Positions 3,349 to 48,695 of a DNA stretch of 48,695 bases are shown piece by piece. The number at the start of each line of letters is the position of its first letter. The first letter of the stretch is position 1. Where the stretch lies: IMG/VR virus record IMGVR_UViG_3300029582_000014. One strand, written 5' to 3'. The notes below the pieces were generated by a model. That model did no database searches and was not told where the DNA came from. It saw nothing but the letters and a program-made list of their open reading frames with translations. The position numbers and the translations under genes are program-made. Source of the DNA: a virus.

Positions 3349-3362
3349 TTCCTGTTACCTCC

Positions 3363-4793: not shown

Positions 4794-4796
4794 TGG

Positions 4797-15521: not shown

Positions 15522-15531
15522 CGGCGCGTCC

Positions 15532-23019: not shown

Positions 23020-23549
23020 CCCCGCTCCCTCTCTTTCTCTGCTTCTGTTGCCATCATGTCGGCGGTATGCAGGGCCAGCACAAGCGGGGTCCGCTCCATT
23101 GCCGCCGAAAGGGAATAGCTTCCGCCGCGGGCCGCGTCGTCATACGCTCCCATGTGCCAGCGAATCGCAAGGGCTTCCGGCTCTGCCAGCTTCATAAACT
23201 GCTGAATCAGGAAAACAGATTTTTCCCCGTGGCCGAAAGGGAAGTGGTCTTTCACGGTGTAGCTTCCGTCCGCCTGCTGGTGGTAGAAGTCCACCTTGCA
23301 GAGATCGTGAAGCAGGGCGCATATTGCGCGGGTTTCCATCGTGTAGTCCTTCACATACGGTCCGTCAATCAGGGCGAAATAAACGTTCAAACTGTGATCG
23401 ACAAGCCCGCCGGGGTAGGCTCCGTGAAATCTGGTGCTTGCCGGGGCGGTGAAAAAGTCGGTGCTTTCCAGCCACGCCAGCAGTTCCGGCGCGCCCGTCC
23501 GGGTAATCTGTGTTTGGTAAATATCTTTGAACCGCTCTTCGTTTGTCAT
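23016..23549 (-). CDS. HD-domain phosphohydrolase
   Basis: Contains FHGAYPGGLVDHSLNV ... ALLHDLCK ... GHGEKS. Confidence 0.75.
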   Translation of the reverse strand: MTNEERFKDIYQTQITRTGAPELLAWLESTDFFTAPASTRFHGAYPGGLVDHSLNVYFALIDGPYVKDYTMETRAICALLHDLCKVDFYHQQADGSYTVKDHFPFGHGEKSVFLIQQFMKLAEPEALAIRWHMGAYDDAARGGSYSLSAAMERTPLVLALHTADMMATEAEKERERG

Positions 23550-24472
23550 GTGTGCAACCTCCGTTCCTTGTGCCGCTCCAAGTATTCGCCCCAGCTTTCT
23601 TTCAGGTATGACCGCCCGTAAATAAACCGCTGGGCGAATTCCTTTTGAAGCGCGTTTGGTATGATTCCTTTCCGCTCGTTCCGCTCCGGCTGTGCGTATA
23701 TGCTGATACCCTTTAGGCGTTTCAGCCGCTCTACCCGGTAGGCCGCGTTCTCCACGTCCTCCGTGACAAGCAGGTAAATAAACAGGTGATACGGCTTCTT
23801 CCCGTGGTTCCCCAGCAGTTCCGCCGCCCGCTCGATTGCCTCAATCTGCGGTATCTGGTCGCACGAAAAGCGAATGAACCGAATCCACGTCAGCCGCGCC
23901 AGTATTCCCGCTATGCGGTCATCGACCAACCGCGCGTCCATGCCTTGATTTAGGTCTATCGCGTACCCGCTCCCGATCATGCTTTCAAGCTGGGAAATTC
24001 CGTATTCGGAAGCAAGAATGTTGTTGTCCATCAGGACAAGTTTGTTCGCGTCCGGGCGCACAACCTGTTTCCATTCCCTGTACGGCTTTATTCCGCCCTC
24101 TTTTTCCGGGACCACGCACCACGGGCAACGATTCGGGCAACCGCGGGTCAAATATCCTATTGCATAGTCGCATTCCGGGTAAATGCTGTAATCGGGAAAG
24201 GCCGCGTCGATCTCCGGCGGTAACTGCTGGTTTATCGGTATGTCGTCATATCCGGTCCCGCCGCGTATTGTGTCCGGCGGCAAATACAGGTTTTCCGGTG
24301 TGAAGTCAAATACTTTGCTTGAATACACCCGGTCATACTGGCACATAGGGGACCACCATTCGACGGAATCCCCGCGGGCTTTGTGGTAGGCCGAAATCTT
24401 CATCAAGGCATAGTTCGGAAAGGTCTTGTGCCTCATGTACTCCTGTTCCGCGTCGTGAAGTCCTATCCGCAT
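23546..24472 (-). CDS. Radical SAM enzyme
   Basis: CX3CX2C cluster motif in GYLTRGCPNRCPWCVVPE. ATG at 24472. Confidence 0.7.
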   Translation of the reverse strand: MRIGLHDAEQEYMRHKTFPNYALMKISAYHKARGDSVEWWSPMCQYDRVYSSKVFDFTPENLYLPPDTIRGGTGYDDIPINQQLPPEIDAAFPDYSIYPECDYAIGYLTRGCPNRCPWCVVPEKEGGIKPYREWKQVVRPDANKLVLMDNNILASEYGISQLESMIGSGYAIDLNQGMDARLVDDRIAGILARLTWIRFIRFSCDQIPQIEAIERAAELLGNHGKKPYHLFIYLLVTEDVENAAYRVERLKRLKGISIYAQPERNERKGIIPNALQKEFAQRFIYGRSYLKESWGEYLERHKERRLHT

Positions 24473-24485
24473 AGCACACCCCGCT

Positions 24486-24866
24486 TCACAACTCCACAAT
24501 TCCGCCGATATTGTCCACGTCGGCCCGCGTGACGCTCCGGCGCTTCAATATTCCGGCGATCACGTCCCCGTAACGCTCCCAGCGTGCGGACACAAGGGCG
24601 AAATACCGCAATTCCGGGTTTGCCCGCGCCCGGTTCTGCAAGCATTGCATAACGTGGTCGTCAATCTCCATTTTCAGGGGATAGACGGCGATCTTTCCCG
24701 TTTCCTTGTCCACCTCCCGGCAAACCACCATTAGGCGCATTCTCTGTAATGGCTTTTCCGGCTCCGCCGCCGGGCGCGGGTCCCGCTCCTTATGCGCGCA
24801 ATCGCAAGGTTCACCCGCGTCCAAATGCGCCCCGCAATTTGGGCATTCCCGGTAAGGTGTTCCCAT
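24486..24866 (-). CDS. Hypothetical protein with an N-terminal zinc ribbon
   Basis: 126 aa. Sequence reads CPNCGAHLDAGEPCDC. Confidence 0.65.
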   Translation of the reverse strand: MGTPYRECPNCGAHLDAGEPCDCAHKERDPRPAAEPEKPLQRMRLMVVCREVDKETGKIAVYPLKMEIDDHVMQCLQNRARANPELRYFALVSARWERYGDVIAGILKRRSVTRADVDNIGGIVEL

Positions 24867-24881
24867 GTTGACCGCCCCTTT

Positions 24882-25639
24882 CTACATGAAATCAAAAAAG
24901 CTGATCTGGTTTTCTTCTAACTCGAAATTTCTTTCAATGTCCTGTAGGCCCTCGACAACCCGAAATTTTCCCGGCCTCACGGTTTCCGGGTCCGTTTGAA
25001 TTTTCATCATTTCTTCCCACAAATCCGGGTGGTGCTTCCGTAAATGCCGCAACTCTTCGTCCCGCGCATTCGGGCAGAAGAAACACCCCCCCGCTTTGTG
25101 AATTCGTAGATCGGGGACAACAGGCCCCGTTCTTTGCAAAGGTTCCGCGCCATTTCCTGCGTGTAGCCATACTTGACAAGCAGATAGCAACCCTCCGCCA
25201 GTTTTTCTTCCTTGATTCGGTTTTGTTCATCAACGCAAATTCCTTCATAGTAAACTGCTCCGGGGTGTTCTTTTCGGAATTTGTTCAGCGGGGGCAATTT
25301 GCAATCCCGTTTTATACTGCACCAGCCCTTCTTCCCCGAAAGCGGAAAGCCGTGTTTTTTCCCGGTCCGCGGCCCTTTTGTTACCCGCGATTCCATCCAT
25401 TCGCGGGCGGTCTTTTCAGCCCGCAACACGATTGTTTTTACTCCGCGTTGCTCAAAATACGGAATCGCGGTGTTGTATATGAAATCCCGATGTTCTGGAA
25501 CTTCCGCCGATCTTTCTTTGTCAAACATGATTTCGCAATAGACAAGGGCCGAAAGAGGTTCACCCTTTTCGATTGCAAGAATCGCCGTTGCTGTGCTGTC
25601 TGCCCCGAACGAACAGGACACGAAATATTCCTTTTTCAT
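24882..25639 (-). pseudogene. PAPS-reductase / PP-loop ATPase-like gene split by a frameshift in a G7 run
   Basis: ORF 25007..25639 starts with the PP-loop-like motif VSCSFGADST. After the G7 tract (plus-strand C7 at 25086..25092) the conserved ..GGCFFCPNARDEEL.. C-terminus continues in ORF 24882..25190. One extra G would restore a single ~253-aa frame. Confidence 0.75.
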
Positions 25640-25648
25640 TTCCTGTCC

Positions 25649-26470
25649 CTATTCCTTCTTGCGCAATTTCAGATAAATTGACCATCCCGTGAAGTCGTTG
25701 TATTCATACTGAACCCCGTAATCTTCGTCGGTTGGGGTCCATCCTGGGTACTTCTTTTCCCAAAACTCCCGGCCCGGACGCTCCCGCGCCCATTTTTCGA
25801 CCTGTCGGTGGTTGTACTTCCCGTCGTTGGTCCTGCTGTATGGCCGTTCGAGGTTGTGCGAGGAAGTCCACCGCTTCTTCCCGCCGCTCTGCTTCACAAG
25901 GTAGGTACAGAGGGCCGCAATCCCGTTTTCGTCCGATTGCAGGCGGTCAGCATTGCAAAACCCGATTCGGTCGCCCTTCTTCTGTCCCTTTCGCTTCCGC
26001 TTCCTCCACAACTCTTCCACCGCGTCGCGGTCCAGTCCGCCCGACATGATTATGTGGTGGTGAATTCGGACGGGCTTTTCACTGTTCCGCTTTGTGGTGT
26101 AGGCGGTGACAAGCATATATTTCAGGGGCGGCAAACCTTCCTTCTGCCTGCGGTATTGGACCCGGCGGAGGTAGTTTGTGACCTCCCGTTCCGCTTCCTC
26201 CACCGTGGCCGGAAGGTATTTCCCGCTGTATGTAGCCGTCACGTGCAACGCCTCCGGGTCACTCCCGAAATTCAGGTTTGCCGTCTGTATGAAGTAGCGC
26301 CGGGCGTTTTTGTCATTCAGGTTCTTTTGCTTCGGCTCCGATTCCCGGACCTTCTTTGACCGCTTCCCGCGGCCCGATGATAGCTTTTGCGTGTCCGTGT
26401 AGGAAAAAATATCGACTTCCCTATACCGATCACCGCAATAGATTTTCTTTTCTCGAATAAAGCAACGCAC
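25649..26470 (-). CDS. HUH rolling-circle replication initiator (Rep)
   Basis: GTG start. HUH motif in PVRIHHHIIM and a Tyr motif in ALCTYLVKQ. 273 aa. Confidence 0.65.
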   Translation of the reverse strand: MRCFIREKKIYCGDRYREVDIFSYTDTQKLSSGRGKRSKKVRESEPKQKNLNDKNARRYFIQTANLNFGSDPEALHVTATYSGKYLPATVEEAEREVTNYLRRVQYRRQKEGLPPLKYMLVTAYTTKRNSEKPVRIHHHIIMSGGLDRDAVEELWRKRKRKGQKKGDRIGFCNADRLQSDENGIAALCTYLVKQSGGKKRWTSSHNLERPYSRTNDGKYNHRQVEKWARERPGREFWEKKYPGWTPTDEDYGVQYEYNDFTGWSIYLKLRKKE

Positions 26471-26802: not shown

Positions 26803-26930
26803 AGGTTGATAGATGATATATTTTCATCGGCGGAATCCGCTTCGTGTTGCTCTGCAAAGCACCACGGGACGGTTTTTCTTATGCTGTTTTTACTGCGGCG
26901 GGGAGGGGGTCAACCCTCCACCGCCTTTTT
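26803..26930 (+). ncRNA. Candidate ~128-nt small RNA between the promoter and the intrinsic terminator
   Basis: The promoter at 26768-26796 and the terminator at 26897-26930 bracket a segment with no credible ORF. It is antisense to the leader between the VR2 gene and rep. Confidence 0.4.
26897..26930 (+). terminator. Intrinsic terminator on the plus strand
   Basis: Stem GGCGG-GGAGGG / CCCTCC-(A)-CCGCC, 6-nt loop, then TTTTT. It overlaps the stop codon of the minus-strand VR2 gene. Confidence 0.6.
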
Positions 26931-27644
26931 GTCTGTCTCTTCCTGCGCGATCTCTTCCGCGTCCTGTTTCGACTGGAATAAGGCGGCAACCGCCGCGCCC
27001 AGCGCGTCGCCCCACAAATAGGGCGGGTAATCTTCCAGCGCGGACAAGATCGCTTCCGCGGCTTCCTGCTTCATTTCTTCATGCCGCGCGGCCTGCTCCA
27101 CATCGTCCGCCCCCTCTCCGGGGATAGATACCGAAATTTCATATTTCAGATAGCAAAGCGGGCGAACGCCCCTGTAGCCGTTGCACGCATGGCGCCAGTC
27201 CAAAGCGCCGGAGGAATTGACGCTGCGGACGCTGCAAGAGTAGGACGCGTCGCACGTCCACGGGGTCAGGTTCCAGCACCACACGTCCACGGGCGGGGTG
27301 ATGTCCCGATACTTCCGGCACAGCGCGTCGGACCGCAAGGCGATCTTGTCCACGGCGGTTCCGTAATCGGTCATTCCGTCGTCGGCGGTCAGGTCGCTTT
27401 CCCAATCGAGGAACGCGGCCCGGTCTGCGCCCTCCGCAACCAGCGCGTCGAGGAACGCCCCGTTCAGTTCCCGGCGCAAAGAGGATTTCCGCCAGTCGTT
27501 GCAGTTCTCTTCATCGAATGCCCGGAGAAAAACAGGCTCCGCGGCCAGACAGAGGGTTCCCGCTCCGATGTCCTCGAATTTGACCCACTCTACGCCGCCA
27601 TACAGAAAACGTGCGCCCTGCGCCAGTTCAGAAAGTTTCTTCAT
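26910..27644 (-). CDS. DGR variable protein 2 (244 aa), a paralogue of the N-terminal domain of the 572-aa target
   Basis: Contains VR2 (aa 132-164, ..DASYSCSVRSVNSSGALDWRHACNGYRGVRPLC..). It shares W..S.LR..LN and DKI motifs with the other target. Confidence 0.85.
   Translation of the reverse strand: MKKLSELAQGARFLYGGVEWVKFEDIGAGTLCLAAEPVFLRAFDEENCNDWRKSSLRRELNGAFLDALVAEGADRAAFLDWESDLTADDGMTDYGTAVDKIALRSDALCRKYRDITPPVDVWCWNLTPWTCDASYSCSVRSVNSSGALDWRHACNGYRGVRPLCYLKYEISVSIPGEGADDVEQAARHEEMKQEAAEAILSALEDYPPYLWGDALGAAVAALFQSKQDAEEIAQEETDKKAVEG
27154..27249 (-). repeat. DGR variable repeat VR2
   Basis: 96-nt near-copy of TR. The 11 differences all fall at TR adenines (coding strand). There is also one C/T difference near the 3' end. 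Confidence 0.9.
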
Positions 27645-28775: not shown

Positions 28776-29165
28776 TCACCCTCTTTCCCAAATCCGCTTG
28801 ACTTCTTCGCAACAGTAGTCCGCGCCGTTTGTCAGCACCCAGTCTTTCAGGTCGTCCCGCTGTGTGCGCTTGCAATGCCGTTCCAGCGCGTCGAAATCGT
28901 CTTGCAGGGTGTCCGGGTTCAGGAATTTCAGATTTTGCCCCGTGCCGAACGCCAGTTCAGCCGAAACCACAATGCACCCCGTCCCGTCGTAGGTATCCGG
29001 GTGAATCCGAATGAACAGGTTCCCCAGCTTCATTTTGAAGTAGCCGGGCATTGCAACTTCTTCTTTTTCAAGGCCCTTTGCGGTCCCGAATTCCTGCACC
29101 GCAACCGCGCGGGCGGTTTTCAAGGTCAGCTTCACGCCGCCGGGGTAGTTCTTTTTCATGGTCAT
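28776..29165 (-). CDS. Hypothetical protein
   Basis: 129-aa ORF in the array. Confidence 0.65.
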   Translation of the reverse strand: MTMKKNYPGGVKLTLKTARAVAVQEFGTAKGLEKEEVAMPGYFKMKLGNLFIRIHPDTYDGTGCIVVSAELAFGTGQNLKFLNPDTLQDDFDALERHCKRTQRDDLKDWVLTNGADYCCEEVKRIWERG

Positions 29166-29605
29166 TCCGCCTCCCGCTCGAATCGGATTTTCATTTGTGC
29201 GGGGTATAGGTCAACCGTTGGCCGTCGTCTCCCGGTCCACCGCAATCCCCCGGCTTGTCCTACACACTTCCAGCCCGCGGCCCGCAGACTGGCCCCGTTT
29301 TCGCTTTCCAGAATGTAAGTCACCAGCCGTTTATATCCCATAGCGCGGGCGGCTCTCCATGCGGCGGCATATAGCATTGAACAGGCATTGCGGGTCCCAT
29401 CCGTGCATAACCTGTTCACTTCCAGCGTCCAGCCGTCGTCCAAATGACGGGCCACAGGTCGCCCCACAATGGCAACTCCCACAATCTTTTCGCCATCGGA
29501 AAGCCCGATGGAAAACTTGTGGCCTACGGTCGGCCCGTGGTGTCTGTGGTTCTGTTCGACGAACGCGTTTGCCTCTTTTAGCTTGATCGGCACAACTTCC
29601 AGCAT
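29162..29605 (-). CDS. Hypothetical protein, possibly GNAT-fold acyltransferase-like
   Basis: 147 aa. The sequence ..ANAFVEQNHRHHGPTVGHKFSIG..VGVAIVGRPVARHLDDGWTLEVNRLCTDG.. resembles a prophage family I recall as GNAT-related. This is a weak assignment from memory. Confidence 0.6.
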   Translation of the reverse strand: MLEVVPIKLKEANAFVEQNHRHHGPTVGHKFSIGLSDGEKIVGVAIVGRPVARHLDDGWTLEVNRLCTDGTRNACSMLYAAAWRAARAMGYKRLVTYILESENGASLRAAGWKCVGQAGGLRWTGRRRPTVDLYPAQMKIRFEREAE

Positions 29606-29829
29606 TAGACCGCCTCCGCCGCCACAGTTTCAAGGCCCAGCCACCAGCCCGGACTATTCCGTTTATCCTCATAGGGACAAGGGCTTCCGTCGTCACAACT
29701 GACTTTCCCGCACCCGGCGCAATAGTTCCGCTGGAATTCTTCGTCCCACGGCCCTTCCAAGATCGGCAAGCCCCGCAAGAATGCGGCCAGCGTCTCCGGG
29801 TTTTTGGTGATCGCTTCAAAATTAGTCAC
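29605..29829 (-). CDS. Small Cys-rich hypothetical protein
   Basis: GTG at 29829 after aaggaggtttgcgcg. It overlaps the upstream TAA. Confidence 0.5.
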   Translation of the reverse strand: MTNFEAITKNPETLAAFLRGLPILEGPWDEEFQRNYCAGCGKVSCDDGSPCPYEDKRNSPGWWLGLETVAAEAV

Positions 29830-30097
29830 CGCGCAAACCTCCTTGTAAATTTCCCGCCGCGGGCTTCCCCCGCCGTTTGAAACTCTCCTGAACCCGCTGT
29901 TGCGCAAGAACGGGGCTATACGCCCGCCGTTGGTTGCGGTCCAGCCCTCCGGTTTCCCCGCGCTTCAACTCGCGGTACACCGTCGCCGCTGTCACTCCCA
30001 GCCCGTCGGCTATGTCGGCCACGCGGTCGCCGTTCAGGTAGCGGGTTGAAATCTGCTTCCGGTCCTGAAAGGTTATATATCTGTACTGCCGCACCAC
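29822..30097 (-). CDS. Stand-alone IS30-type HTH protein (resembles a transposase N-terminus)
   Basis: 91 aa. ..ITFQDRKQIS..ADIADGLGVTAATVYRELKRG..YSPVLAQ.. parallels ..LTKYDRYKLE..QIAEELHVHVSTIYREIKRA..YNPDGAE.. in the adjacent transposase. Confidence 0.65.
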   Translation of the reverse strand: MVRQYRYITFQDRKQISTRYLNGDRVADIADGLGVTAATVYRELKRGETGGLDRNQRRAYSPVLAQQRVQESFKRRGKPAAGNLQGGLRGD

Positions 30098-30275: not shown

Positions 30276-31322
30276 TCAGGCGAGGGCCGCGAGGCATTCC
30301 CGGAAACAAATTTCAGCGGTTTTCCAGCCCAGTATTTCCCGCGGATAGTTGTTAATCCAATCTTCCGCCCGCTTCACCGCGGCGGCGCTCACGGCTCCGA
30401 AATCCGTTCCCTTTGGAAACTTCCGGCGAATCATTTTGTTCTGGCATTCGTTGGACCCGCGTTCATAAGAGGAATACGGGTGACAGAAATAGGCCGTCGT
30501 CCGCCTCCGACCCTTCCGCACGGCGGACCGCTCCAGCCGCTCCACGTCGGAGAACTCCCCGCCGTTGTCGAACGTGATCGTCTGGAACGCCTTTGCGAAA
30601 AGGTCCGCGCCGAATCTCCGTTCGATCTGGTCCAGCGCCTTTATTACGCTGTTCGCGGTCCGGTCCTTGATTCTTGCAATAATTTCCCATCGGGTCAAAC
30701 GCTCTGTCAGTACAAGCAAGGCTTTTGACCCGTCTTTTTTGCTGTAAACCGTGTCCCCCTCCCAATGCCCGAACGTGGTTCGCTGGTCCACTATTTCCGG
30801 GCGCTTATCAATGCTCTTCCCGTTTTGCCGTTTCCCGGTCTTTTTCACGGTTCGATAGGGGCGCTTCCTTTTTGGCTTCTCCGGCAAGTCTGCGTTGGTC
30901 AGGGACAGAAAAACCCCTTTCGTGATATAGCTGTAAAGCGTACTGACGCAGATTGACGTTTTGAACGCCTTCCCCTCTAACTTGATGTCAGCGAGGGCCG
31001 CGGCGGGTGAACGATCTTCGTCAAGAATTTTCCGTTCGATATAGTCCGCAAGTTCATAATCATTCCCAATTTTCAGGGGCGCGCCCTTTGCGGCAAGGTT
31101 TTCCCGGTATCTTTTTTCGGCTCCGTCCGGGTTGTAGCGATCTTCCACAATCCACGTGTCCCCGTCTAAATACTGCCAGCGGGCGCGCTTAATCTCCCGG
31201 TAAATCGTGCTAACATGAACGTGCAGTTCCTCCGCGATCTGTTTTTTTGAACACTTCATGTTCAGCATAGCTTCCAGCTTGTAGCGGTCGTATTTTGTCA
31301 GGTGACTAAAGCAATGTCCCAT
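30276..31322 (-). mobile_element. IS30-family DDE transposase gene (348 aa). Element ends are not resolved.
   Basis: N-terminal HTH (STIYREIKRA) and a DDE core including FGHWEGDTV. RBS is acggagggccagacgATG. Confidence 0.85.
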
Positions 31323-33143: not shown

Positions 33144-33217
33144 GTATAAAACTTGCACATACTAACGTGAGTATATTTGTGCATTTTCCCATCTTGCTTT
33201 TATACTAACGTTAGTAT
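33132..33217. promoter_or_regulatory. Cluster of three 16-bp palindromic operators, ATACT-N6-AGTAT
   Basis: Sites: 33132..33147 atactaacgcaagtat; 33159..33174 atactaacgtgagtat; 33202..33217 atactaacgttagtat (perfect palindrome). Confidence 0.7.
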
Positions 33218-33222
33218 ATAAT
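33194..33222 (+). promoter_or_regulatory. Promoter TTGCTT, 17-nt spacer, TATAAT, with the operator inside the spacer
   Basis: Read directly. It drives 33369..34601. Confidence 0.6.
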
Positions 33223-33368
33223 CATAATCAGAAAGAGGGAACACAAGCCGCCCGGTCGCTGGGGCGTAGAGTTCAGCGACGGCCAACCTTACGGGCCGAC
33301 ACGAAAAGGGGGCCGACACGGTAACAACAACACTTCAACTTCTGGTTTCATATATGGGAGGTAATCAC

Positions 33369-34642: not shown

Positions 34643-34662
34643 AAATTTTTTCGTTTTCCCTC

Positions 34663-34691
34663 TTGACTTTATACTAACGTTAGTATATAAT
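34663..34691 (+). promoter_or_regulatory. Promoter TTGACT, 17-nt spacer, TATAAT, with palindromic operator 34671..34686 inside the spacer
   Basis: Read directly. 34668..34706 is an exact 39-bp copy of 33199..33237. Confidence 0.7.
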
Positions 34692-34730
34692 CATAATCAG
34701 AAAGAGCGAAACGAACGGAGGTTTTCAAAA

Positions 34731-37426: not shown

Positions 37427-37903
37427 TTACCTCCCGTGGACAAAATCACTGTAAACGCTTTTCAGCGAATATGGTTTAACGTCGGGCGGTTCTCCGCTTT
37501 CTCCGTAAACTGCCCGTTCGTATTCCCATATCAGAAACCGGGCCGTGTCCTCCGCCCAAATCGCAAGGGGCATAATAAGAAACCACAGCAGGCCGAACGC
37601 CGGGCATACCTGCCCCAGCAGGTTTCCCGGTTGGTTGCTGTAATCCCATACGCCAAGCCCTAACCAGAGGTTCAGAACGCACCCGCTTACAAACTCTACC
37701 GCAAGCACGATCAACGCCCCGGCCACCGATTGAACGATGACCGGGGCGCGGTAGAATCCGGGCCGCTGGTTGATTTCCCCCACAAGCACCCCGCAAAGCC
37801 CGCCTACAATCAGCATGGACGGGTGAGAGTACCCCCGGAAGCAGGTTTCAAGGGCCACATATACGCACCCCAGCGCGGCCCAAATAGTCAATATGCGTTT
37901 CAT
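37427..37903 (-). CDS. Polytopic membrane protein
   Basis: 158 aa with 4-5 hydrophobic helices. Confidence 0.65.
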   Translation of the reverse strand: MKRILTIWAALGCVYVALETCFRGYSHPSMLIVGGLCGVLVGEINQRPGFYRAPVIVQSVAGALIVLAVEFVSGCVLNLWLGLGVWDYSNQPGNLLGQVCPAFGLLWFLIMPLAIWAEDTARFLIWEYERAVYGESGEPPDVKPYSLKSVYSDFVHGR

Positions 37904-38388
37904 TTCGTACCACCACCCGCGGCCTCAATGATTGCCGCCATGCTTGCGGCAAGGTCTTCCGGAAGTTCCGCGCCGTATGTGATCGCCTCCACTTCGTCCA
38001 GTCCCGCCCGCGCAATCCACGCGTTTACATGGTTGCAGTAGGTCCGGTGATAGAAGATGTGCGCCGTCGCCGCCGTCGAAATTTCCGTGAATTCCTGCGC
38101 TGTAAACATTCGGCACAGTTCCCCGTCCGCGTGATAGGGGACCGCTTCGGCCCCCTCCTTTACGAACGTGTATTGTGCCATGATTTCCGTTTGGTCGTGT
38201 TCTGTCAAGCTGAAATGCTTTCCGCCCACGTCAATTCCCGCATAGATTGCCGCAGAACACGCAAGGCCGATTTCCTCTTTCTTTGCCTCCCGCACCTGTG
38301 CAATGTCGGTCCAGTCGTCGGGGGGCTTAATGCCCAGCCGGACAAGTCGCAGATTCCGAATACTATCTTCTTTGTGCTGTACGCTCAT
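37900..38388 (-). CDS. Putative tail-fibre assembly or accessory protein
   Basis: 162 aa. ATGA-coupled to the end of the DGR target gene. Positioned like P2 gpG. Confidence 0.55.
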   Translation of the reverse strand: MSVQHKEDSIRNLRLVRLGIKPPDDWTDIAQVREAKKEEIGLACSAAIYAGIDVGGKHFSLTEHDQTEIMAQYTFVKEGAEAVPYHADGELCRMFTAQEFTEISTAATAHIFYHRTYCNHVNAWIARAGLDEVEAITYGAELPEDLAASMAAIIEAAGGGTK

Positions 38389-40103
38389 TCAAAATTCCCC
38401 CCAACAGAAGAAATAAAGCAATCTCCGCTTGCGCCGTTGCGCTTCACCTTGATTCGGAAGTTGAATCCCCAGCTTTCCGCCGTCTTTGTCTCATTGGAAA
38501 AGAAAAACTTGCTCCCGCTGTTCACCGCCTGCGTCACGTCCTCCCACGTGGGGGAATCGTCGTTGCCGTTGTTGCACACTTCCACGGTAAATTCCGCGCC
38601 CGCGGGAATCTGCCGGGTGACGCTCATAATTGCTTTTGTAATCATAGCGTCCGCCGGAAGCGGGGTTGCAAGGGTGATTTCAATTTCCGTTTCGTTCTTG
38701 CTGAACGTATAAGTCCGGGTCGCGGCTCCGCCGTAATTGTCTGTTGCCGTGATCGTCAGCGTGTGGGACCCATTGGACAGCTTCACCCATTCGTCCGCTG
38801 TCACGTTGAACGTGTATTCCTGCCCGCTGGTCGCCGTGTAGGACCGCTTTTGCACGCCGTCGATCTTCTCAACAACGGTGATCGTCTGGCCGCTGTCTAC
38901 GTCCGTAACCGTGTACGCCTGTGAGAACGCCCCGGTCTTTGCCCCAAGGTCCGAATCACTCCCGCTGATCGTTGGCGGCGTGTTGTTCACCACGGTTCGG
39001 GTCTTGCTTGTGGTGTTGGCCGATTCCGCGCCCGCGCTGTCGTAAGCCCGGACCCGGTATGCAACGCTTGTCCAACCAAAGGTGATATTGTCCGTGTAAT
39101 TCCGGTTGATTCCCTTGTAGACCTGCGCCCAGCTTCCGCCGTTGTTCTGCCGCTCCAAAATGTACCCCGACAGGTTCCCGTCCGCGTCGGTGGAGGCCCC
39201 CCAGCTAATTTCAAGGGTGGACCCGCCGCGCACCGTCTCCGGGACCGTGATTGTGGACGGGGCGGAGGGGGCGCGGTTCCAAATGATCGTGTATGCGCCG
39301 TCCGAATCCTGGTTATCAGATACCAAGATGTCAGATTTGATATTACAAAGCGGGCGAACGCCCCCGTAGCCGCGGTACGCATTGAGCCAGTTCAAAGCGC
39401 CGGAGGAATAGACGTCGCGGACGTAGTAAGAGTTGGACGCATAGGCATCCGCCAGCCACCAGTACCAAGGCGAATTTGCATTCAAACTGCTGTTTGTGTA
39501 CTCGCTCTTGCTGACCGCCTCCGCCGTCGGCTTCGCCTGCCGGGAAGCGTCGTTGCTGAATATGGCCAGTTTGCTTCCGGCGGTCACGTCGCCGGACAAG
39601 CCCACTTCCGTACAGGTCGCAAGGAAGATTTTGTCCGTGCAACTCTCTGTTCCGCCTCCGTCCACCTGTGCTTTGCCGACGGTGTGGGTGGTGGTCAGCA
39701 GGGCGGCAAGGAAGTTCGCGGAGAACCCCGCTAAAAATCCCGCTTCCTGCTGGTATTCGTTGTAGTTGTCCCACACGTTCGCGTTGCTGGGCGGCGCGTC
39801 CTGCCCGTGCTGGGCCGAATACCACTGACCCGCCGCCGCTTGACTGTTCAGCCATTGGCGGATATTGGCATAAATCCATCGGTTATTTCCGTAGCGTTTC
39901 CGGTTGCTGTCGCTGTTGCCGCTCTCGATAGCGTCAAAGCATTTCAGCGAAATAATGCGTTCAGTAATCAGCGTGACGGAATTTGCGGGGTAGCCCGCAT
40001 GGTTCTTGTCCGCGATCTTCCAAACAATCGCCTTGCCGTTGTATAGCGTTCCGGTGTCCTTTACCAGCGCGCCCGCGGCAAGCGAACTCAACGCCTTTGC
40101 CAT
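38385..40103 (-). CDS. DGR variable protein 1: fibre/receptor-binding-like protein (572 aa) with an N-terminal variable lectin-like domain, FN3 and beta-rich C-terminal domains
   Basis: Contains VR1 at aa ~222-253 (..AYASNSYYVRDVYSSGALNWLNAYRGYGGVRPLC..). An FN3-like segment follows (PSAPSTITVPETVRGGSTLEISWGAS..YRVRAYDSAG). RBS is aaggagtgaaggaacATG. Confidence 0.9.
   Translation of the reverse strand: MAKALSSLAAGALVKDTGTLYNGKAIVWKIADKNHAGYPANSVTLITERIISLKCFDAIESGNSDSNRKRYGNNRWIYANIRQWLNSQAAAGQWYSAQHGQDAPPSNANVWDNYNEYQQEAGFLAGFSANFLAALLTTTHTVGKAQVDGGGTESCTDKIFLATCTEVGLSGDVTAGSKLAIFSNDASRQAKPTAEAVSKSEYTNSSLNANSPWYWWLADAYASNSYYVRDVYSSGALNWLNAYRGYGGVRPLCNIKSDILVSDNQDSDGAYTIIWNRAPSAPSTITVPETVRGGSTLEISWGASTDADGNLSGYILERQNNGGSWAQVYKGINRNYTDNITFGWTSVAYRVRAYDSAGAESANTTSKTRTVVNNTPPTISGSDSDLGAKTGAFSQAYTVTDVDSGQTITVVEKIDGVQKRSYTATSGQEYTFNVTADEWVKLSNGSHTLTITATDNYGGAATRTYTFSKNETEIEITLATPLPADAMITKAIMSVTRQIPAGAEFTVEVCNNGNDDSPTWEDVTQAVNSGSKFFFSNETKTAESWGFNFRIKVKRNGASGDCFISSVGGNFE
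39346..39441 (-). repeat. DGR variable repeat VR1
   Basis: 96-nt near-copy of TR. The 10 differences all fall at TR adenines (coding strand). There is also one C/T difference near the 3' end. Confidence 0.9.
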
Positions 40104-41329
40104 GTTCCTTCACTCCTTGTCTGTTTTTCTCCCTCCGAAAGCGTGTTGCGCACTTCTTCGGGGCTTGCGAGGTAGCCGCAGAAATAGCTTTCTCCGGCGG
40201 TTCTCGCTTTTCGCTTCCCGTTCAGCCATACGCTTTCAGGGAAAAGGCTTCTGAAAATCTGGTCCGTTTCCCGGATAAGGTGATAGCAGTTTCCCTTTTC
40301 CGCGTGGCTCCGCCAGCTTCCGTAAGACTGTTCGATTGCCGCAAGGGTGATCTTCCCCTTGTCCAGTAACGCCCGCTGTTTCTTTAGCTTCCGTTTCTCA
40401 TTGCTCTTGCTTGCCCTCCTAACCTTGCGAACTACTTTGCCCGAATCGGTCAAATACGTATGGAATCCCAAGAAATCAATTCCGTTGCGCAACGGGAAAA
40501 TGTTGGTTTTGTGGTTCAGCGTCAGCCCCAGCCGGGCCACATACGCTTGAATTTCCCGGAGGCAATACTGCAAATATTCCTTGTCCTCATGGATTAAATA
40601 GAAGTCGTCCATATATCTTCCGTAATACCGGATTCCCAGCTTTTCTTTTATGAAATGGTCAAGTCCCGAAAGGTACATGACCGCGAACCATTGTGAAGTC
40701 TGGTTCCCAATGGGAATTCCGGGGTTTTCGGTGCTGTCAATTATCATGTCAACCAGCCACAGAACGTCCCGGTCGTGGATAAATTGACGCACCATGCGTT
40801 TCAGCTGTTCATGCTGAATCGAGTAGAAATACTTTGTGATGTCGCATTTCAGAACCCAGCCGTCCGCATAATGGGCGGCGCGCGGGTCGGGCCGCGGCAA
40901 CCCCTCCTCCCGGCACCGTTGTTCCTCCCGCGCTTTCCGCTCAAAATAATAGGACCGCATAAACTCTTCCAGTCTATACAGTCCGTCGTGGGTCCCGCGG
41001 CCCTCTTGCGACGCGTAGTTGCCGCGGATAAAGGTCCGGGAAAATGCAGGCTCTAAAACATTGTCACATAAAGAGTGCTGAACAACCTTGTCCTTGAACG
41101 CATTTGTCATTACAATACGTTCTTTCGGCTCATACACCCGGAAAACAAAATAGTCCGACACGGTGTACGTCTTGTTTTTCAGCATGATTGACAGCAGGCA
41201 GAGGGCTTCCAGCAGGTTAGCTTCAAACTTCGCCACGCTGGGCTTTCCCCTCTTGCCCCGGCGGGCCTTTAGAAACCCCGCGTACAGGTTCCCGAAATCA
41301 TGGACCCGCTCGAATTGGGTTTGTTGCAT
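40088..41329 (-). CDS. DGR reverse transcriptase
   Basis: ATG at 41329 after aaggagcaattttttatt. Carries the motifs IPIGNQTSQ (DGR-type I/LGxxxSQ) and YMDD. 413 aa. Its stop overlaps the target gene start by 16 nt. Confidence 0.9.
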   Translation of the reverse strand: MQQTQFERVHDFGNLYAGFLKARRGKRGKPSVAKFEANLLEALCLLSIMLKNKTYTVSDYFVFRVYEPKERIVMTNAFKDKVVQHSLCDNVLEPAFSRTFIRGNYASQEGRGTHDGLYRLEEFMRSYYFERKAREEQRCREEGLPRPDPRAAHYADGWVLKCDITKYFYSIQHEQLKRMVRQFIHDRDVLWLVDMIIDSTENPGIPIGNQTSQWFAVMYLSGLDHFIKEKLGIRYYGRYMDDFYLIHEDKEYLQYCLREIQAYVARLGLTLNHKTNIFPLRNGIDFLGFHTYLTDSGKVVRKVRRASKSNEKRKLKKQRALLDKGKITLAAIEQSYGSWRSHAEKGNCYHLIRETDQIFRSLFPESVWLNGKRKARTAGESYFCGYLASPEEVRNTLSEGEKQTRSEGTWQRR

Positions 41330-41583
41330 AATAAAAAATTGCTCCTTGCCGTGTATAGAATCCGCCTTGCGGCGGTCGCAGACGCGCCGCGCCTGCCGTC
41401 GCAATGCTTCATCATCGGACCCCACCACGCGCCCGCGGTGGGGCGGAAGCTGGTTCCCGTGGGCCTTGCTTCACCAATCTTGTATTTACCGTCATGCTGT
41501 CACCACGGCGGAGGGATACGGCTTCCTTTGATGGTGGTCCTCTGTTTTCAGCCGTTCGGCTTACTCATTTCGCGGTATTCCAC

Positions 41584-41679
41584 CAGAGCGGGCGAACGCC
41601 CCTGTTGCCGTTGTACGCATTGTTCCAGTTCAAAGCGCCGGAGGAATTGACGTTGCGGACGTTGTAAGAGTTGGACGCT
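41584..41679 (-). repeat. DGR template repeat (TR), non-coding
   Basis: Lies 33 nt after the avd stop and 254 nt before the RT start. It contains 22 adenines, including 9 AAY triplets in the VR reading frame. Confidence 0.9.
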
Positions 41680-41712
41680 ACAAGCCGTACCCCAAGAAAA
41701 ACGCCCCGGCGA

Positions 41713-42132
41713 TCACCGCCGCGGCGCGTTTCCTCTTTTCTGTTGCAGGGCGGCGAACCGCTCCCGGTCCTGCTTTTTCCACTTTGCTGTCATGCGCTTT
41801 ACGTCAAGGATATAATTTGACCATGCGGCGCATTGCTCCGCGGAAATCCGCTTGCATTCGTGGGAAAGCTCCACCAGAAACAGGGCGGTTTTGCACTCCG
41901 TCAACGCCTTTTTCTGTTCGTACTGCCGTTCCCGGAATTCCTGCGGGTCGGAAACGTCAAGTTCGTTCGCCTCCTGTACGTGCTGGAAGATGTCAAGCAC
42001 AAGATCGCAAACCCGGTTTGCAATCGTGAATCGGTATTTATTCGGAAACCTCTTCGCGGTCGCCATCTTGAACGTGTGCTTGACTAAATCCTTTGCCTTT
42101 ACAATGATGACGAACTCTTTTTCATCTGCCAC
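41713..42132 (-). CDS. avd: Avd-like accessory variability determinant (four-helix-bundle protein)
   Basis: Sequence ..IIVKAKDLVKHTFKMATAKRFPNKYRFTIANRVCDLVLDIFQHVQEAN.., small and basic, directly upstream of TR. The start is ambiguous (GTG 42132 or TTG 42165). Confidence 0.75.
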   Translation of the reverse strand: MADEKEFVIIVKAKDLVKHTFKMATAKRFPNKYRFTIANRVCDLVLDIFQHVQEANELDVSDPQEFRERQYEQKKALTECKTALFLVELSHECKRISAEQCAAWSNYILDVKRMTAKWKKQDRERFAALQQKRGNAPRR

Positions 42133-42364
42133 GCAGTAAGCACCGCCTTTCCCTGATTTTCTCAATCTCCGCCGGGTCCCCCTCGAACCGGAATCCCCAT
42201 TCTGTGACGGTCAGAACCGCCCGCGCTCCGGTGTACGTCCTCCCGCTGATCGTCAGTTCGTCAGCGTCGGAGGCGCACGCCGCGCAAGGCGGTTCGATCT
42301 CCACAAACAGGCTTCCAATAATGCAGGACAGTTCCCGCCGGGTACACGCAAAGTCCGTCAACAT
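42122..42364 (-). CDS. Small hypothetical protein between the fibre gene and avd
   Basis: 80 aa. Its ATG overlaps the fibre stop (ATGTTGA). Confidence 0.5.
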   Translation of the reverse strand: MLTDFACTRRELSCIIGSLFVEIEPPCAACASDADELTISGRTYTGARAVLTVTEWGFRFEGDPAEIEKIRERRCLLRGR

Positions 42365-43248
42365 TCAATGCGGTTCCGTTCCGCGTTCCAAATGCCCTTT
42401 GTCATTACAACCCCTTCAAGGGAATCAAATTGCACAAGGTACGGGTTTCCTGTGATATTCTCGAACAGGCCATCTTCCACGCGGGAAACGCGGCTTTCCA
42501 GCCCGGCAATCGCGGCCAGCGCCTCCGCCGCGTCCGCCGCGGCCTGCGCCGCCTGCTCCGCGCCCGCGCTCCACCCGGCCTTTTCCTCTGCCGTGGTGTG
42601 AATGTCCGTGTCCTCCGTGTGGTCAATCAGTCCGGAAATTGCGGTGTCGTAGTTTCCCATTGTGGTGGGGTTCACGTGAATGTCGCTGTTGTTGACGTGG
42701 GAATTCAGGTCGGTAACGTCCGCTTTCTTGTCAAACTCCGTTTTGTGGGCCGCGGCGGAAGCATTGTGGGTTTCAATGTCCTTCTTTGTGGCCGTAACCA
42801 CGTTCGGGTCGATGACAAAAGAGATCGCGCCCGTGTTGGAAACCTCAATGTGCATGGTCAGTTCGATTTCCCCGGCGGCTCCGCTGGTGATGATGACTTT
42901 TTCCGTGTCCGGCGTGTTGCATACGGCGATCATGTGCGGCCCCTCCGCGTCATCGTCGAACACGCCCATTTCCCGAATAGTCCACCCGCCCACGTCGGAG
43001 GGGACCACGGCCACAATGTCAATCATATTCGGGGATTGTTCGTTGACCTCAACGCGGGTCACGTCCCCGCGCCATTTTTCCCCCTTTAGCGCGGTCATGG
43101 TGGAATCCGGCTTGTAATAGCTTCCGCCGCCGTCACCGACGGCCAGCTTTACAATATTGACCTTCTGGCCCTCCATGACGGCTTGTGTGATAAGCTGAAC
43201 GCCTACGTCGGTCACAATGCTTCCGTATGTATTTTCGATTTCTGCCAT
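42358..43248 (-). CDS. Tail fibre protein (P2 gpH-type N-terminal collar domain)
   Basis: The N-terminus ..GSIVTDVGVQLITQAVMEGQKVNIVKLAVGDGGG..ALKGEKWRGDV.. is typical of the phage tail-collar fibre domain. It follows the gpI-like gene. Confidence 0.8.
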   Translation of the reverse strand: MAEIENTYGSIVTDVGVQLITQAVMEGQKVNIVKLAVGDGGGSYYKPDSTMTALKGEKWRGDVTRVEVNEQSPNMIDIVAVVPSDVGGWTIREMGVFDDDAEGPHMIAVCNTPDTEKVIITSGAAGEIELTMHIEVSNTGAISFVIDPNVVTATKKDIETHNASAAAHKTEFDKKADVTDLNSHVNNSDIHVNPTTMGNYDTAISGLIDHTEDTDIHTTAEEKAGWSAGAEQAAQAAADAAEALAAIAGLESRVSRVEDGLFENITGNPYLVQFDSLEGVVMTKGIWNAERNRIEC

Positions 43249-47444: not shown

Positions 47445-48695
47445 CCTCCTGTTGCCGTTGCCGTTCGTCGATCTGGTCCAGCAACTCTTCGTCGTGCCTG
47501 CGCAACATTTCTTCGATGTCCTCCGCCTGCGCGTCGCTTCCCACGTGGAAAACGGGCGCGCTGTGGATTACAACCGACGATTGCCGCGCGCCAGCCGTCA
47601 CCGACGGGGCCGACACGCTGGGGGCCGTCGCGCCCGCATAGGCCATTTGCAGGGCCGGAACGCTTATGCCCGCCCGAATGGTGTTTACCGCGTTTGCGAG
47701 GTTTCGGAAAATGCTTCCCGTCTCCGCCGCATTGAAAACGGTCCGGTTCCGTGCATTGGTCACAAGTTCCGCGCCAGCTTCGCCCGCTATGAACGTGTCA
47801 GGCGTGTTCTTCGTGCCTTTTGCAAAGGTCGGAAGCAACGGGATATTGATTCCCTTTCCTCCGATTCCGGGGACCCAATCAGGAATTTTCAGCTTGTTCA
47901 GGCCGGAAATCACGCCGTTCACAAGGCCGATAATTCCGTTCAGTGCGCCGCTTGCAATGCTTTTCAGCGAATTCCAAACGCCGCTGAATATTCCTTTTAC
48001 GCCTTCCCAAACACGGGTCCAATCTCCGGTGAAAATGCCCGCGAACACGTCCACAATTCCTTTGATTGCGGTAAGCGCCCCGGACACAACCCCTTGAATG
48101 GTCTGTAACGCAACGCTTATGATGTTCTGAATGGTTGGCATAAGGAATTGAATCACCGACATAATCGCCGTTGCAATGGTGGAAACGACTGTTGCCAGCC
48201 CTTGCAGAACGGAAGCGATAGTCGGTGCCCACTCCGCGAACGCCTGCGCGATCTGCGGCAAAACGGTTTGAACAATGAAATTGAATAGTTGTTCCACAAT
48301 CGGGCGGACGTAGGTGTTCACAAACTCGATGAACCCCGAAAGGATATTCCACACAGTTTGAATAACTGTGATCGCCCCGTCAATGGCCCCCGTTGCTTCC
48401 TCCCCGAATAGGTTAATCAGGAAGTCCCGCGCGCCGCCCAAATTTCCGTCCGTGAAGATATTCTTGATGGTGTTCCCGATATTCGAGATCGCCGCAACCA
48501 CCTTGTCAAAGACAACCAGCCCGGCTTCCCCGAATACCCGCCCGATCACTTCACGCACTTTGTCCAGATTGTCCCGGAGGATTTGCACCGCCGAAACAAT
48601 CAGCATAACAACGCCCACCACGGGCAGAATCTTTCCAAGGATTCCGCTGAATGGTCCCAAAATGGCCCCGCCCAGCTTTTGAAGCGGCCCGAACA
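47416..48695 (-). CDS. Tail tape measure protein, C-terminal part (continuation of 2170..1 across the junction; 48597..48695 duplicates 1..99)
   Basis: The frame is open to the window end. The sequence is Gly/Ala/Ile-rich with repetitive helical character. The stop is at 47416. Confidence 0.85.
   Translation of the reverse strand, partial: FGPLQKLGGAILGPFSGILGKILPVVGVVMLIVSAVQILRDNLDKVREVIGRVFGEAGLVVFDKVVAAISNIGNTIKNIFTDGNLGGARDFLINLFGEEATGAIDGAITVIQTVWNILSGFIEFVNTYVRPIVEQLFNFIVQTVLPQIAQAFAEWAPTIASVLQGLATVVSTIATAIMSVIQFLMPTIQNIISVALQTIQGVVSGALTAIKGIVDVFAGIFTGDWTRVWEGVKGIFSGVWNSLKSIASGALNGIIGLVNGVISGLNKLKIPDWVPGIGGKGINIPLLPTFAKGTKNTPDTFIAGEAGAELVTNARNRTVFNAAETGSIFRNLANAVNTIRAGISVPALQMAYAGATAPSVSAPSVTAGARQSSVVIHSAPVFHVGSDAQAEDIEEMLRRHDEELLDQIDERQRQQEDDERRRNYD
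48597..48695. repeat. 99-bp terminal overlap identical to 1..99
   Basis: Exact identity on direct reading. Confidence 0.95.

Follow-up and report, generated by a model that had tools for sequence, protein, structure and literature searches.

The window, i.e., the whole stretch of viral DNA analysed here (IMG/VR record IMGVR_UViG_3300029582_000014, 48,695 nucleotides), carries on its minus strand a diversity-generating retroelement (DGR). A reverse transcriptase (RT) gene, the accessory gene avd, and a template repeat (TR) form a cassette with a first target gene containing a variable repeat (VR1), and a second target gene with its own variable repeat (VR2) lies at a distance. These features and the genes next to them are as follows.

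42358..43248, minus strand: tail-collar fibre protein (Pfam Phage_tail_fib, 158 bits; PHROG 1780), upstream neighbour outside the DGR
42122..42364, minus strand: 80-aa ORF between the fibre gene and avd (PHROG 21058, E 5e-17), present in 18 of 18 related loci
41713..42132, minus strand: avd (accessory variability determinant), 139 aa from a probable GVG start (GTG at 42132); the mechanical ORF extends to 42165
41584..41678, minus strand: TR, 95 nt with 21 adenines and nine AAY codons in the VR frame, non-coding
41330..41583, minus strand: TR-RT spacer of 254 nt, conserved as a structured RNA that presumably serves as the priming/scaffold part of the DGR RNA
40088..41329, minus strand: DGR reverse transcriptase, 413 aa, with ATG at 41329, an AAGGAG ribosome-binding site upstream, and the motifs IGNQTSQ and YMDD
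38385..40103, minus strand: target 1, "tentaclin"-type, 572 aa, with an N-terminal DUF6273 followed by FN3/Ig-like domains
39346..39440, minus strand: VR1, encoding residues ~221–252 of target 1
37900..38388, minus strand: DUF4376 tail-fibre-like protein (Pfam DUF4376, 43.5 bits; PHROG 1348, "tail fiber protein"), downstream neighbour outside the DGR
26910..27644, minus strand: target 2, 244 aa, with only the VR-bearing end of DUF6273, in the early/replication block 12 kb from the cassette
27154..27248, minus strand: VR2, encoding residues ~132–164 of target 2

The original prediction of a DGR with the order avd-TR-RT-target, adenine-specific differences between its repeats, and a second VR elsewhere was borne out in the tests run. 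The distances it gave were all confirmed, namely 33 nt between avd and TR, 254 nt between TR and the RT ATG, and a 16-nt overlap of RT and target 1 (40088–40103), and both RT motifs are present. The RT matches Pfam RVT_1 (53.5 bits), and its best match among solved structures is bRT of phage BPP-1 (8ub7, 127 bits, E 8e-36), whereas a group II intron RT scores 45 bits (E 5e-11). Its IGNQTSQ motif aligns with IGSLTSQ of bRT. A tblastn search with the RT returned 143 phage records, and the named matches listed are DGR-bearing groups (BPP-1, Bacteroides phage p00, crAss-like phages, and Faecalibacterium phages). Judged from its sequence, the RT most likely belongs to the DGR clade. The Avd-like ORF, which sits directly 5′ of TR as in other avd-TR-RT cassettes, matches PHROG 3206, "Avd protein of DGR" (E 1.5e-25). 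Its scores against Pfam bAvd (24.3 bits) and NCBIfam DivGenRetAVD (33 bits) are both under the curated cut-offs, with the full profile length aligned, and a sequence search with Avd against the PDB gave no match.

On re-examination, the coordinates and sequences predicted for TR, VR1, and VR2 were as described, and tabulation of the alignment by base placed the mismatches on TR adenines, apart from one C>T change common to both VRs. However, the repeat had been taken as 96 nt long, with 10 adenine differences for VR1 and 11 for VR2; these counts hold over 96 nt, but position 1 of that repeat (A in TR, T in VR1, C in VR2) is T in all VR1s and C in all VR2s of the same lineage. Since this position is constant for each VR type, it belongs to the flank and the true repeat is 95 nt. 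Over this length, adenines account for 9 of the 10 differences between VR1 and TR (p 2e-6) and for 10 of the 11 between VR2 and TR (p 3e-7; hypergeometric, 21 adenines among 95 positions in both cases). The sole exception lies three bases from the 3′ end, where both VRs have T in place of C at position 94. When each TR adenine was replaced by N, the resulting pattern matched TR, VR1, and VR2 and nothing else in the window, and it had no match in 100 shuffles. Both VRs are in frame inside long ORFs, and in this frame all 21 repeat adenines occupy codon position 1 or 2, while position 1 of the 96-nt repeat, outside the true repeat, is at codon position 3. The nine AAY triplets that had been noted in TR were found, and no minus-strand ORF of more than 34 aa crosses TR, in agreement with its proposed non-coding nature.

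Target 1 contains DUF6273 at residues 41–257 (Pfam, 116 bits) and matches PHROG 10993, "Hoc-like", over its full length (E 1e-244). An AF2 model of residues 1–276 has a pLDDT of 95.9, and in this model VR1 forms a β-hairpin with strands at residues 227–231 and 237–241, predicted to lie on the protein surface. Foldseek matched the target 1 model to the DUF6273 domain of the T. ramosa IgA peptidase (9qa6, E 8e-16) and to many phage DUF6273 proteins, and gave no significant match to C-type lectins or Mtd. The Ig/FN3 region (residues 276–496) resembles FN3con (4u3h) at residues 276–366 (E 0.003) and the tail fibre 31he at residues 368–496 (E 6e-6). Target 1 itself is part of the tail or virion-surface module. 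In target 2, DUF6273 similarity covers residues 116–167 (Pfam, 26 bits), and the protein matches PHROG 9958 (E 3e-59). Its AF2 model has a pLDDT of 45, from a shallow alignment in which all sequences are at least 80% identical. Profile-profile comparison of the two targets found only 56 columns in common, around the VR.

Natural variation was compared between assemblies, not within one population. TR is identical to that of the relatives L006 and L007 (0 differences in 96 nt), and the remaining cassette differs by 1–3%, whereas VR1 differs from theirs at 12 and 13 of 96 nt (12.5–13.5% of positions), 11 and 13 of these differences being on TR adenines. A similar picture was obtained for VR2 in five phages that are 97–98% identical, where 19 of the 22 adenine columns are variable, compared with 1 of 74 non-adenine and 24 of 939 flanking columns. 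Retrieval from metagenomes anchored on the flanks yielded 9 distinct VR1 and 13 distinct VR2 sequences, with ~50% of adenine cells changed versus 2–4% of non-adenine cells, and a pattern scan of metagenomes gave 18 loci. Among 32 distinct target 2 proteins, each Asn-templated site has 8–11 residue types, while no variable site outside the VR has more than three; the 90%-identity clusters of target 2 comprise 940, 360, and 4856 member sequences. The VRs thus vary at TR-adenine columns while TR is invariant, indicating that diversification is recent or ongoing. Turnover is not constant, since five contigs of one study (L222, L225, L229, L231, and L232) have an identical VR2. On these sequence comparisons, the DGR is real and apparently active.

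The 3′ ends of TR and the VRs share the GC-rich segment GGGGCGTTCGCCCGCT, and the sequences part after position 96. The C/T difference at position 94 had been interpreted as a mark distinguishing IMH from IMH*. This interpretation was not upheld, because the difference is absent in sister lineages, whose TR has T at position 94 too, and in others a C is found at the next base. Other DGRs are known in which IMH and IMH* do not differ (PMC5758913). In the window lineage, all 22 distinct VRs retrieved (9 VR1 and 13 VR2) have T at position 94, i.e., the TR base at this position was never transferred to a VR, and information transfer therefore begins 5′ of it. This places a hard constraint on the start of transfer, between TR positions 77 and 94, with the first templated base predicted at positions 78–93. 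No hairpin was detected after VR1 or VR2, as DNA folds of 85 nt at each VR end were no better than shuffles (z −0.41 and +0.34). A GC-rich inverted repeat downstream of the VR occurs in only 34% of DGRs (PMC5758913) and is thus not a defining feature of the family.

The spacer between TR and RT is kept in 14 lineages. Its alignment supports seven helices with 29 pairs, of which 13 have changed on both sides; shuffled alignments gave 5.6 ± 1.6 such pairs (0 of 500 reached 13) and slid controls gave 2–5. When the spacer was folded on its own, its minimum free energy was not significantly better than that of shuffles (z −1.84), and the structure is supported by covariation, not by energy. A candidate priming region is predicted at spacer A52–A57, beside the GGTGG/CCACC helix. 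RNAalifold also proposed that the TR 3′ end pairs over a long range with the ribosome-binding site of RT (columns 28–32 and 299–303), but this pairing has no both-side changes and was rejected. Rfam has no match to the spacer or anywhere else in the window, and no sequence resemblance to the BPP-1 spacer is visible by eye.

Could such repeats arise without a DGR? A coding segment might have been duplicated and then have diverged by point mutation or gene conversion, next to an RT of retron, group II, or defence type that has nothing to do with the repeats. Indeed, NCBIfam, which holds no DGR RT model, gives group II RT/maturase as the best match of the RT (94.9 bits), yet this score is far under its cut-off of 300, and the scores of all retron and Drt models, such as Drt3a (59.8, cut-off 200) and retron St85 (42.9, cut-off 235), are likewise far below theirs; the RT is nearest to bRT. 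Ordinary paralogous repeats also fit poorly with targets that have no detectable similarity beyond the 56 columns around the VR and with a TR that has no ORF. Adenine specificity (p ~1e-6) together with TR invariance refutes this explanation, to which we give practically no credence. A second alternative is an element that has ceased to mutagenise, with its parts still present and its TR/VR differences as relics. In its favour, all the variation was seen between assemblies, some contigs carry identical VR2 sequences, and no IMH-proximal hairpin was found. Against this, the ORFs of RT (including the catalytic YMDD), Avd, and the two targets are all undamaged, and genomes with 97–99% identity, which are nearly alike in TR and flanks, have VRs that differ entirely. 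Hundreds of distinct sequences within a 90%-identity cluster of target 2 and the structural constraint on the spacer RNA argue in the same direction, and a fossil DGR is thus very unlikely.

The original prediction further described the element as an insertion between two tail-fibre genes. The recent entry of a mobile DGR into a tail-fibre operon that already existed would agree with the position of the cassette between the tail-collar fibre gene and the DUF4376 fibre-like gene, and a hint of module exchange comes from a sister lineage in which Avd is only 56% identical while RT is 86–89% identical. However, the arrangement fibre-orf80-avd-RT-target1 is found at the same place in all 18 relatives of the upstream fibre gene for which sufficient flanking DNA is available, and no empty, DGR-free fibre locus was found among them, so the claim of insertion was not sustained. 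The order recurs in the phages nd12 and nd4, the RT of nd12 being only ~62% identical, and the GC content across the cassette (0.54–0.57) is not distinctive. Recent insertion is therefore improbable, if somewhat less so than a fossil element. The same cassette, with mismatches confined to adenines, occurs at over 40 loci of IMG/VR, with RTs as little as 57% identical, and also in nd12 and nd4. In IMG/VR, 562 relatives of the RT were found, and a set of bacterial assemblies with one genome per species yielded at least 411, most of these in Oscillospirales. Prophages related to the window lineage occur in Oscillospirales, with cultured hosts such as Acutalibacter intestini M00204 and Oscillibacter sp. 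1-3.

The preferred reading, which we regard as very probable, is a functional two-target DGR of the tentaclin type in a complete, circular, myovirus-like genome of ~48.6 kb with a host among gut Clostridia (Oscillospirales). To date, such a design has been published for nd4 and nd12, which have avd-TR-RT, a "tentaclin" target, and, at a distance, another target that is small (Baykov et al. 2023, PMC10743442); the window is thus a new example and not a new kind of system. Tentaclins begin with a lectin-like DUF6273 domain, have one to four Ig-like/FN3 domains after it, and carry a seven-residue consensus in the C-terminal Ig domain (PMC10743442). Correspondingly, target 1 has an N-terminal DUF6273 with its VR on a predicted hairpin and Ig/FN3 domains after it. 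The cassette had no megablast match among GenBank phages, and its link to nd12 and nd4 was seen only with blastn and tblastn. The window is a third lineage beside these two phages, with 66–71% nucleotide identity to them.

The closest layout is that of nd12 (OR777946.1), which has the same order avd-TR-RT-target1 with the same 16-nt overlap of RT stop and target 1 start. Its target 1 (~579 aa) combines N-terminal DUF6273/C-lec with Ig/FN3 domains and has its VR towards the 5′ end, and its second target is a small DUF6273 protein encoded ~12 kb further downstream, away from the structural module. All of its TR/VR mismatches are on adenines, and an IS30-family gene occupies the corresponding position. 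The phage nd12 differs in its RT (62.6% amino-acid identity), its cassette (~71% nucleotide identity over 39%), its TR (102 nt with 28 adenines, versus 95 nt with 21), its target 2 (294 aa, versus 244 aa), and its genome size (33–36 kb, versus 48.6 kb). The nd12 record annotates a "major tail protein" and no tail sheath, whereas the window has a sheath gene, although a sheath gene of nd12 is reported in the paper (PMC10743442). The phage nd4 (OR777945.1) shares a myovirus-like genome (46–49 kb), the cassette order, a target 1 of 569 aa, and a target 2 of 234 aa in the replication block ~9.6 kb from VR1, and a relative of it is reported as a prophage of the Oscillospirales species Flavonifractor plautii (PMC10743442). 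Its nucleotide identity is ~66% over 35% of the cassette, its RT/target overlap is 11 nt, and its TR has a different sequence with 25 adenines. More distantly, the Toutatis-type DGR also has two DUF6273 targets with the VR at the C-terminal end of DUF6273 and gut Clostridia hosts, but its RT is ~44% identical and DNA similarity is confined to 242 nt of the RT gene.

The BPP-1 element (mtd-avd-TR-brt) has an RT of the same clade as that of the window, the two being 29% identical across 84% of the length. Both elements have avd, place a spacer between TR and RT, mutate specifically at adenines, have a GC-rich 3′ end common to TR and VR, and follow the AAY codon design. As predicted, the gene order differs, with target 1 downstream of RT instead of upstream of avd; yet this order is already published, the avd-TR-RT core as architecture B1 of Wu et al. 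2018 (PMC5758913) and the whole layout in nd12 (PMC10743442). Further differences are the presence of two targets, the DUF6273 fold in place of the Mtd trimer, and VRs that are internal (residues 221–252 of 572 and 132–164 of 244) and not at the target C-terminus. The BPP-1 spacer is also shorter (~144 nt, as TR ends at 1832 and brt starts at 1977, versus 254 nt), and BPP-1, like Legionella, has a GC-rich hairpin after the VR, of which none was found after the VRs of the window.

By analogy with BPP-1, from which self-priming, the role of Avd, retrohoming of cDNA, and ligand binding are taken, the element may act as follows. An RNA spanning the 3′ end of avd, TR, and the 254-nt spacer would fold into a conserved structure, from which the RT-Avd complex would prime itself at the spacer, copy TR, and misincorporate opposite adenines. 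The cDNA would then replace the homologous 95 nt in two genes, the adjacent target 1 and target 2, 12 kb away. In target 1, the Ig/FN3 domains may form the stalk of the lectin-like domain, and the virion probably displays the protein. Changes would be limited to residues from AAY, TAC, and AGG codons on the surface β-hairpin, which could provide a large repertoire of binding specificities.

Target 2 might instead be an early-expressed, non-structural hypervariable binder rather than a virion receptor-binding protein. This idea, which is speculative and on balance doubtful, is based on its location outside the structural module in the window, nd4, and nd12, on its replication and DNA-modification neighbours (a replication initiator at 25649–26470 and a Mom-like gene at 29162–29605), on the overlap of its start with the stop of the upstream early-block ORF, and on the lack of an obvious signal peptide. 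If it were true, a phage DGR would diversify an intracellular protein in parallel to a virion adhesin from one template, and the intracellular protein could engage, e.g., variable host or rival-phage factors.

Existing knowledge of DGRs is unchanged by this finding. Collectively, the results extend the published two-target DGRs of tentaclin type in phages by a third lineage, which is widespread, and the comparisons are clean evidence of natural diversification in both targets. They also offer two usable leads, namely the constraint on the start of information transfer and the spacer RNA, which is backed by covariation, absent from Rfam, and contains a candidate priming region.

The diversity-generating retroelement (DGR) of the window comprises the following elements:

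41713–42132, minus strand, avd
41584–41679, minus strand, template repeat (TR)
40088–41329, minus strand, reverse transcriptase (RT), 413 aa from an ATG preceded by an AAGGAG site
39346–39441, minus strand, variable repeat VR1, in target 1 (38385–40103, 572 aa)
27154–27249, minus strand, variable repeat VR2, in target 2 (26910–27644, 244 aa)

The repeats lie where the original prediction had placed them. Over 96 nt, VR1 and VR2 differ from the TR at 10 and 11 adenines, respectively, and share a C>T change at position 94. Among the same-lineage sequences recovered, position 1 is T in all VR1 and C in all VR2; being constant within each target, it is flank and not a mutated site. The true repeat is 95 nt long, with 9 (VR1) and 10 (VR2) adenine-site differences. 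Mismatches so concentrated on adenines have chance probabilities of 2e-6 (VR1) and 3e-7 (VR2), and a pattern with N at every TR adenine matches only the three copies in the window and nothing in 100 shuffles. In the VR frame, which contains the nine AAY codons described, none of the 21 adenines of the 95-nt repeat falls on a third codon position. The TR is non-coding, as claimed (minus-strand ORFs across it are all ≤34 aa), and the spacings are also correct: avd and the TR are 33 nt apart, 254 nt separate the TR from the RT ATG, and the RT and target genes overlap by 16 nt. The C/T at position 94, proposed to distinguish IMH from IMH*, is not a conserved mark: the TR of sister lineages has T, and others have C at position 95; DGRs with identical IMH and IMH* are known (PMC5758913). 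No hairpin 3′ of VR1 or VR2 is better than shuffles; only about one DGR in three has downstream repeats of this type (PMC5758913).

Natural variation was compared between assemblies from different samples, without imposing adenine specificity. In five phages 97–98% identical over 1035 nt around target 2, variable columns amount to 19 of the 22 VR2 adenine columns, 1 of the 74 other VR2 columns, and 24 of the 939 flanking columns. The cassette differs from those of two close relatives (L006 and L007) by 1–3% throughout, except in VR1, with 12.5–13.5% difference (11 of 12 and 13 of 13 changes on adenines), and in the TR, where 0 of 96 positions differ. Together with previously collected loci, a metagenome search that used only GCGTCC and the 3′ flank as anchors yielded 9 different VR1 and 13 different VR2 sequences. 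Changes affect about half of their adenine cells, with the frequency order G > T > C, compared with 2–4% of other cells, mostly in diverged lineages with their own TR. Among 32 distinct target-2 proteins, each Asn-templated site shows 8–11 residues and variable sites outside the VR at most three; target 2 clusters at 90% identity have 940, 360, and 4856 members. The element is a real DGR whose activity, judging from these sequences, is very probably current or recent. An identical VR2 with a single change off the adenines (G>A at position 41) is carried by five contigs of one ENA study series (L222, L225, L229, L231, and L232); this points to a single circulating clone and not to constant turnover.

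The RT contains the IGNQTSQ and YMDD motifs, as predicted. Its best match among solved structures is BPP-1 bRT (8ub7, E 8e-36), with group II and retron RTs well behind, and every score against the NCBIfam retron, group II, and Drt models is far under the cut-off. The RT matched 143 GenBank phage records; the named phages among the matches listed belong to DGR-bearing groups, i.e., BPP-1 (29% identity), Bacteroides phage p00, crAss-like phages, and Faecalibacterium phages. The Avd-like ORF is identified as Avd by PHROG 3206 (E 1.5e-25), with scores under threshold in Pfam and NCBIfam. In a sister lineage (L241–L245), identity to the window is 56% for Avd, 86–89% for RT, and 85% for the fibre protein; either Avd would have been exchanged or its evolution would far outpace that of the other cassette parts. 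The RT frame is open for 33 codons 5′ of the ATG (41330–41428, up to a GTG at 41428), overlapping the conserved spacer RNA. Since alignments of distant relatives start at the ATG only, this extension is probably untranslated. Just 5′ of the TR, at 41698–41721, the avd stop overlaps a hairpin that resembles a terminator and has a T-run (CGGCGGTGATCGCCG GGGCGTTTTT); this hairpin does not reach significance against shuffles but, if functional, would restrict avd read-through into the TR.

In BPP-1, bRT-Avd primes from the 2′-OH of spacer A56, copying starts at TR G117 within the GC-rich TR 3′ end, and almost the entire spacer is required (PMC6182149). By analogy, an avd-TR-spacer RNA of the window would be copied by RT-Avd in this way. 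The 254-nt spacer is kept in 14 lineages and folds into seven helices with 29 pairs, 13 of which are changed on both sides; shuffles give 5.6 ± 1.6, with 0 of 500 reaching 13, and a slid-partner control gives 2–5. In one covarying helix, the last TR base together with spacer nt 1–4 (GGTGG) is paired with spacer nt 47–51 (CCACC). Directly after it lies an invariant CAAAGGA (spacer 54–60), a candidate priming region. Position 94, which is C in the TR, is T in 22 of 22 distinct VRs, and the last mutable TR adenine is at position 77. Information transfer thus starts between TR positions 78 and 93, within GGGGCGTTCGCCCGCT, similar to BPP-1.

Target 1 contains DUF6273 at residues 41–257 (116 bits), followed by FN3 and tail-fibre-like β-sandwich domains, and matches PHROG 10993 end to end. 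The AlphaFold model of residues 1–276 is confident (pLDDT 95.9), and its VR forms a β-hairpin with strands 227–231 and 237–241. Foldseek retrieved many phage DUF6273 proteins and, from Thomasclavelia ramosa IgA peptidase, the N-terminal DUF6273 domain (9qa6, E 8e-16), but C-type lectin domains only at E > 1; thus, the C-lec assignment of target 1 comes from the literature. In target 2, the DUF6273 match is limited to the VR-bearing end; the protein also matches PHROG 9958, and AlphaFold gave no usable model. The profiles of the two targets share 56 columns, with nothing detectable outside them. Many target 1 homologues in the protein database are only ~250–263 aa long and stop at the VR. These look like metagenome assemblies that broke off where the VR is heterogeneous, and would indirectly point to within-sample variation.

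The window ends (1–99 and 48597–48695) are an identical 99-nt direct repeat, and genes for small and large terminase subunits, portal, protease, major head protein, sheath, tape measure, baseplate, tail-collar fibre, and endolysin are present. Both features identify the window as the complete, circular genome of a myovirus-like phage, about 48.6 kb (48,596 nt) in length. The cassette lies in the tail module, in the order tail-collar fibre gene, 80-aa ORF, cassette, and DUF4376 fibre-like gene. It had been described as inserted between tail-fibre genes, yet the order fibre-orf80-avd-RT-target 1 is found in 18 of 18 fibre-gene relatives with enough flank, 11 of which also have the DUF4376 gene. 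No empty site was found among close relatives of the fibre protein, and insertion is thus not supported. Elsewhere, plus-strand ORFs at 3300–5366 (688 aa, antisense to the minus-strand sheath gene at 3363–4793) and 15211–16584 (457 aa) have no PHROG match; such ORFs probably arise artefactually on the GC-rich antisense strand. Direct repeats of 121 nt (17649–17769 and 18029–18149; 74% identical, 380 nt apart) adjoin a ParA-like gene (16829–17599) and may be paralogous small genes or partition sites.

Target 2 is located 12 kb from the cassette amid replication and DNA-modification genes, including those for a replication initiator and Mom-like, PAPS-reductase-like, radical-SAM, and IS30-like DDE proteins. 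The radical-SAM and PAPS-reductase-like genes (23546–25639) and the Mom-like gene (29162–29605) flank it, which suggests that the early region contains a DNA-modification module. The IS30-like DDE protein (HTH_38 and rve; 30276–31322) adjoins a 91-aa HTH-only paralogue (29822–30097). Because an 'IS30 family transposase' occupies the matching relative position in nd12, this gene is probably a phage integrase rather than an inserted IS element. Two 91% identical copies of a 57-nt promoter-like repeat (33185–33241 and 34654–34710) contain a perfect 18-bp palindrome, TATACTAACGTTAGTATA, and a degenerate third copy lies nearby (about 33158–33175); they look like candidate repressor operators of a lysis/lysogeny switch.

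The avd-TR-RT core corresponds to architecture B1 of Wu et al. 2018, who also listed phage targets that are not adjacent to the cassette, and internal VRs in a minority of cases (PMC5758913). The cassette is 66–71% identical (blastn) to those of phages nd12 and nd4, whose DGRs have two targets (Baykov et al. 2023, PMC10743442). Their target 1 proteins ('tentaclins'; 569 or 579 aa) combine an N-terminal DUF6273/C-lec domain with Ig-like domains and have a VR near the 5′ end; target 2 is a small DUF6273 protein of 234 or 294 aa, and adenine-site variation was described in 54 nd4-like and 13 nd12-like genomes (PMC10743442). As in the window, the TR precedes and target 1 follows the RT in both records; the RT/target overlap is likewise 16 nt in nd12 but 11 nt in nd4, and VR2 is found 12 kb (nd12) or 9.6 kb (nd4) further downstream, not among the structural genes. 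The same pair of 'large and small' DUF6273 targets is known from Faecalibacterium phages Lelie and CP11 (PMC11792537). More than 40 IMG/VR loci contain the same cassette, with mismatches confined to adenines and RT identity down to 57%. RT relatives number 562 in IMG/VR and at least 411 in bacterial species-representative genomes, mostly Oscillospirales (including Acutalibacter, Oscillibacter, and Dysosmobacter), the best being 'Bacterium 210917-SL.2.15' (89% identity). The original prediction described the element accurately, whereas the novelty it implied does not stand: the DGR is a new lineage of a two-target design published in 2023. Target 2 lies in a replication gene block in the window and nd4, and none of the three lineages (window, nd4, and nd12) has it within the structural module.
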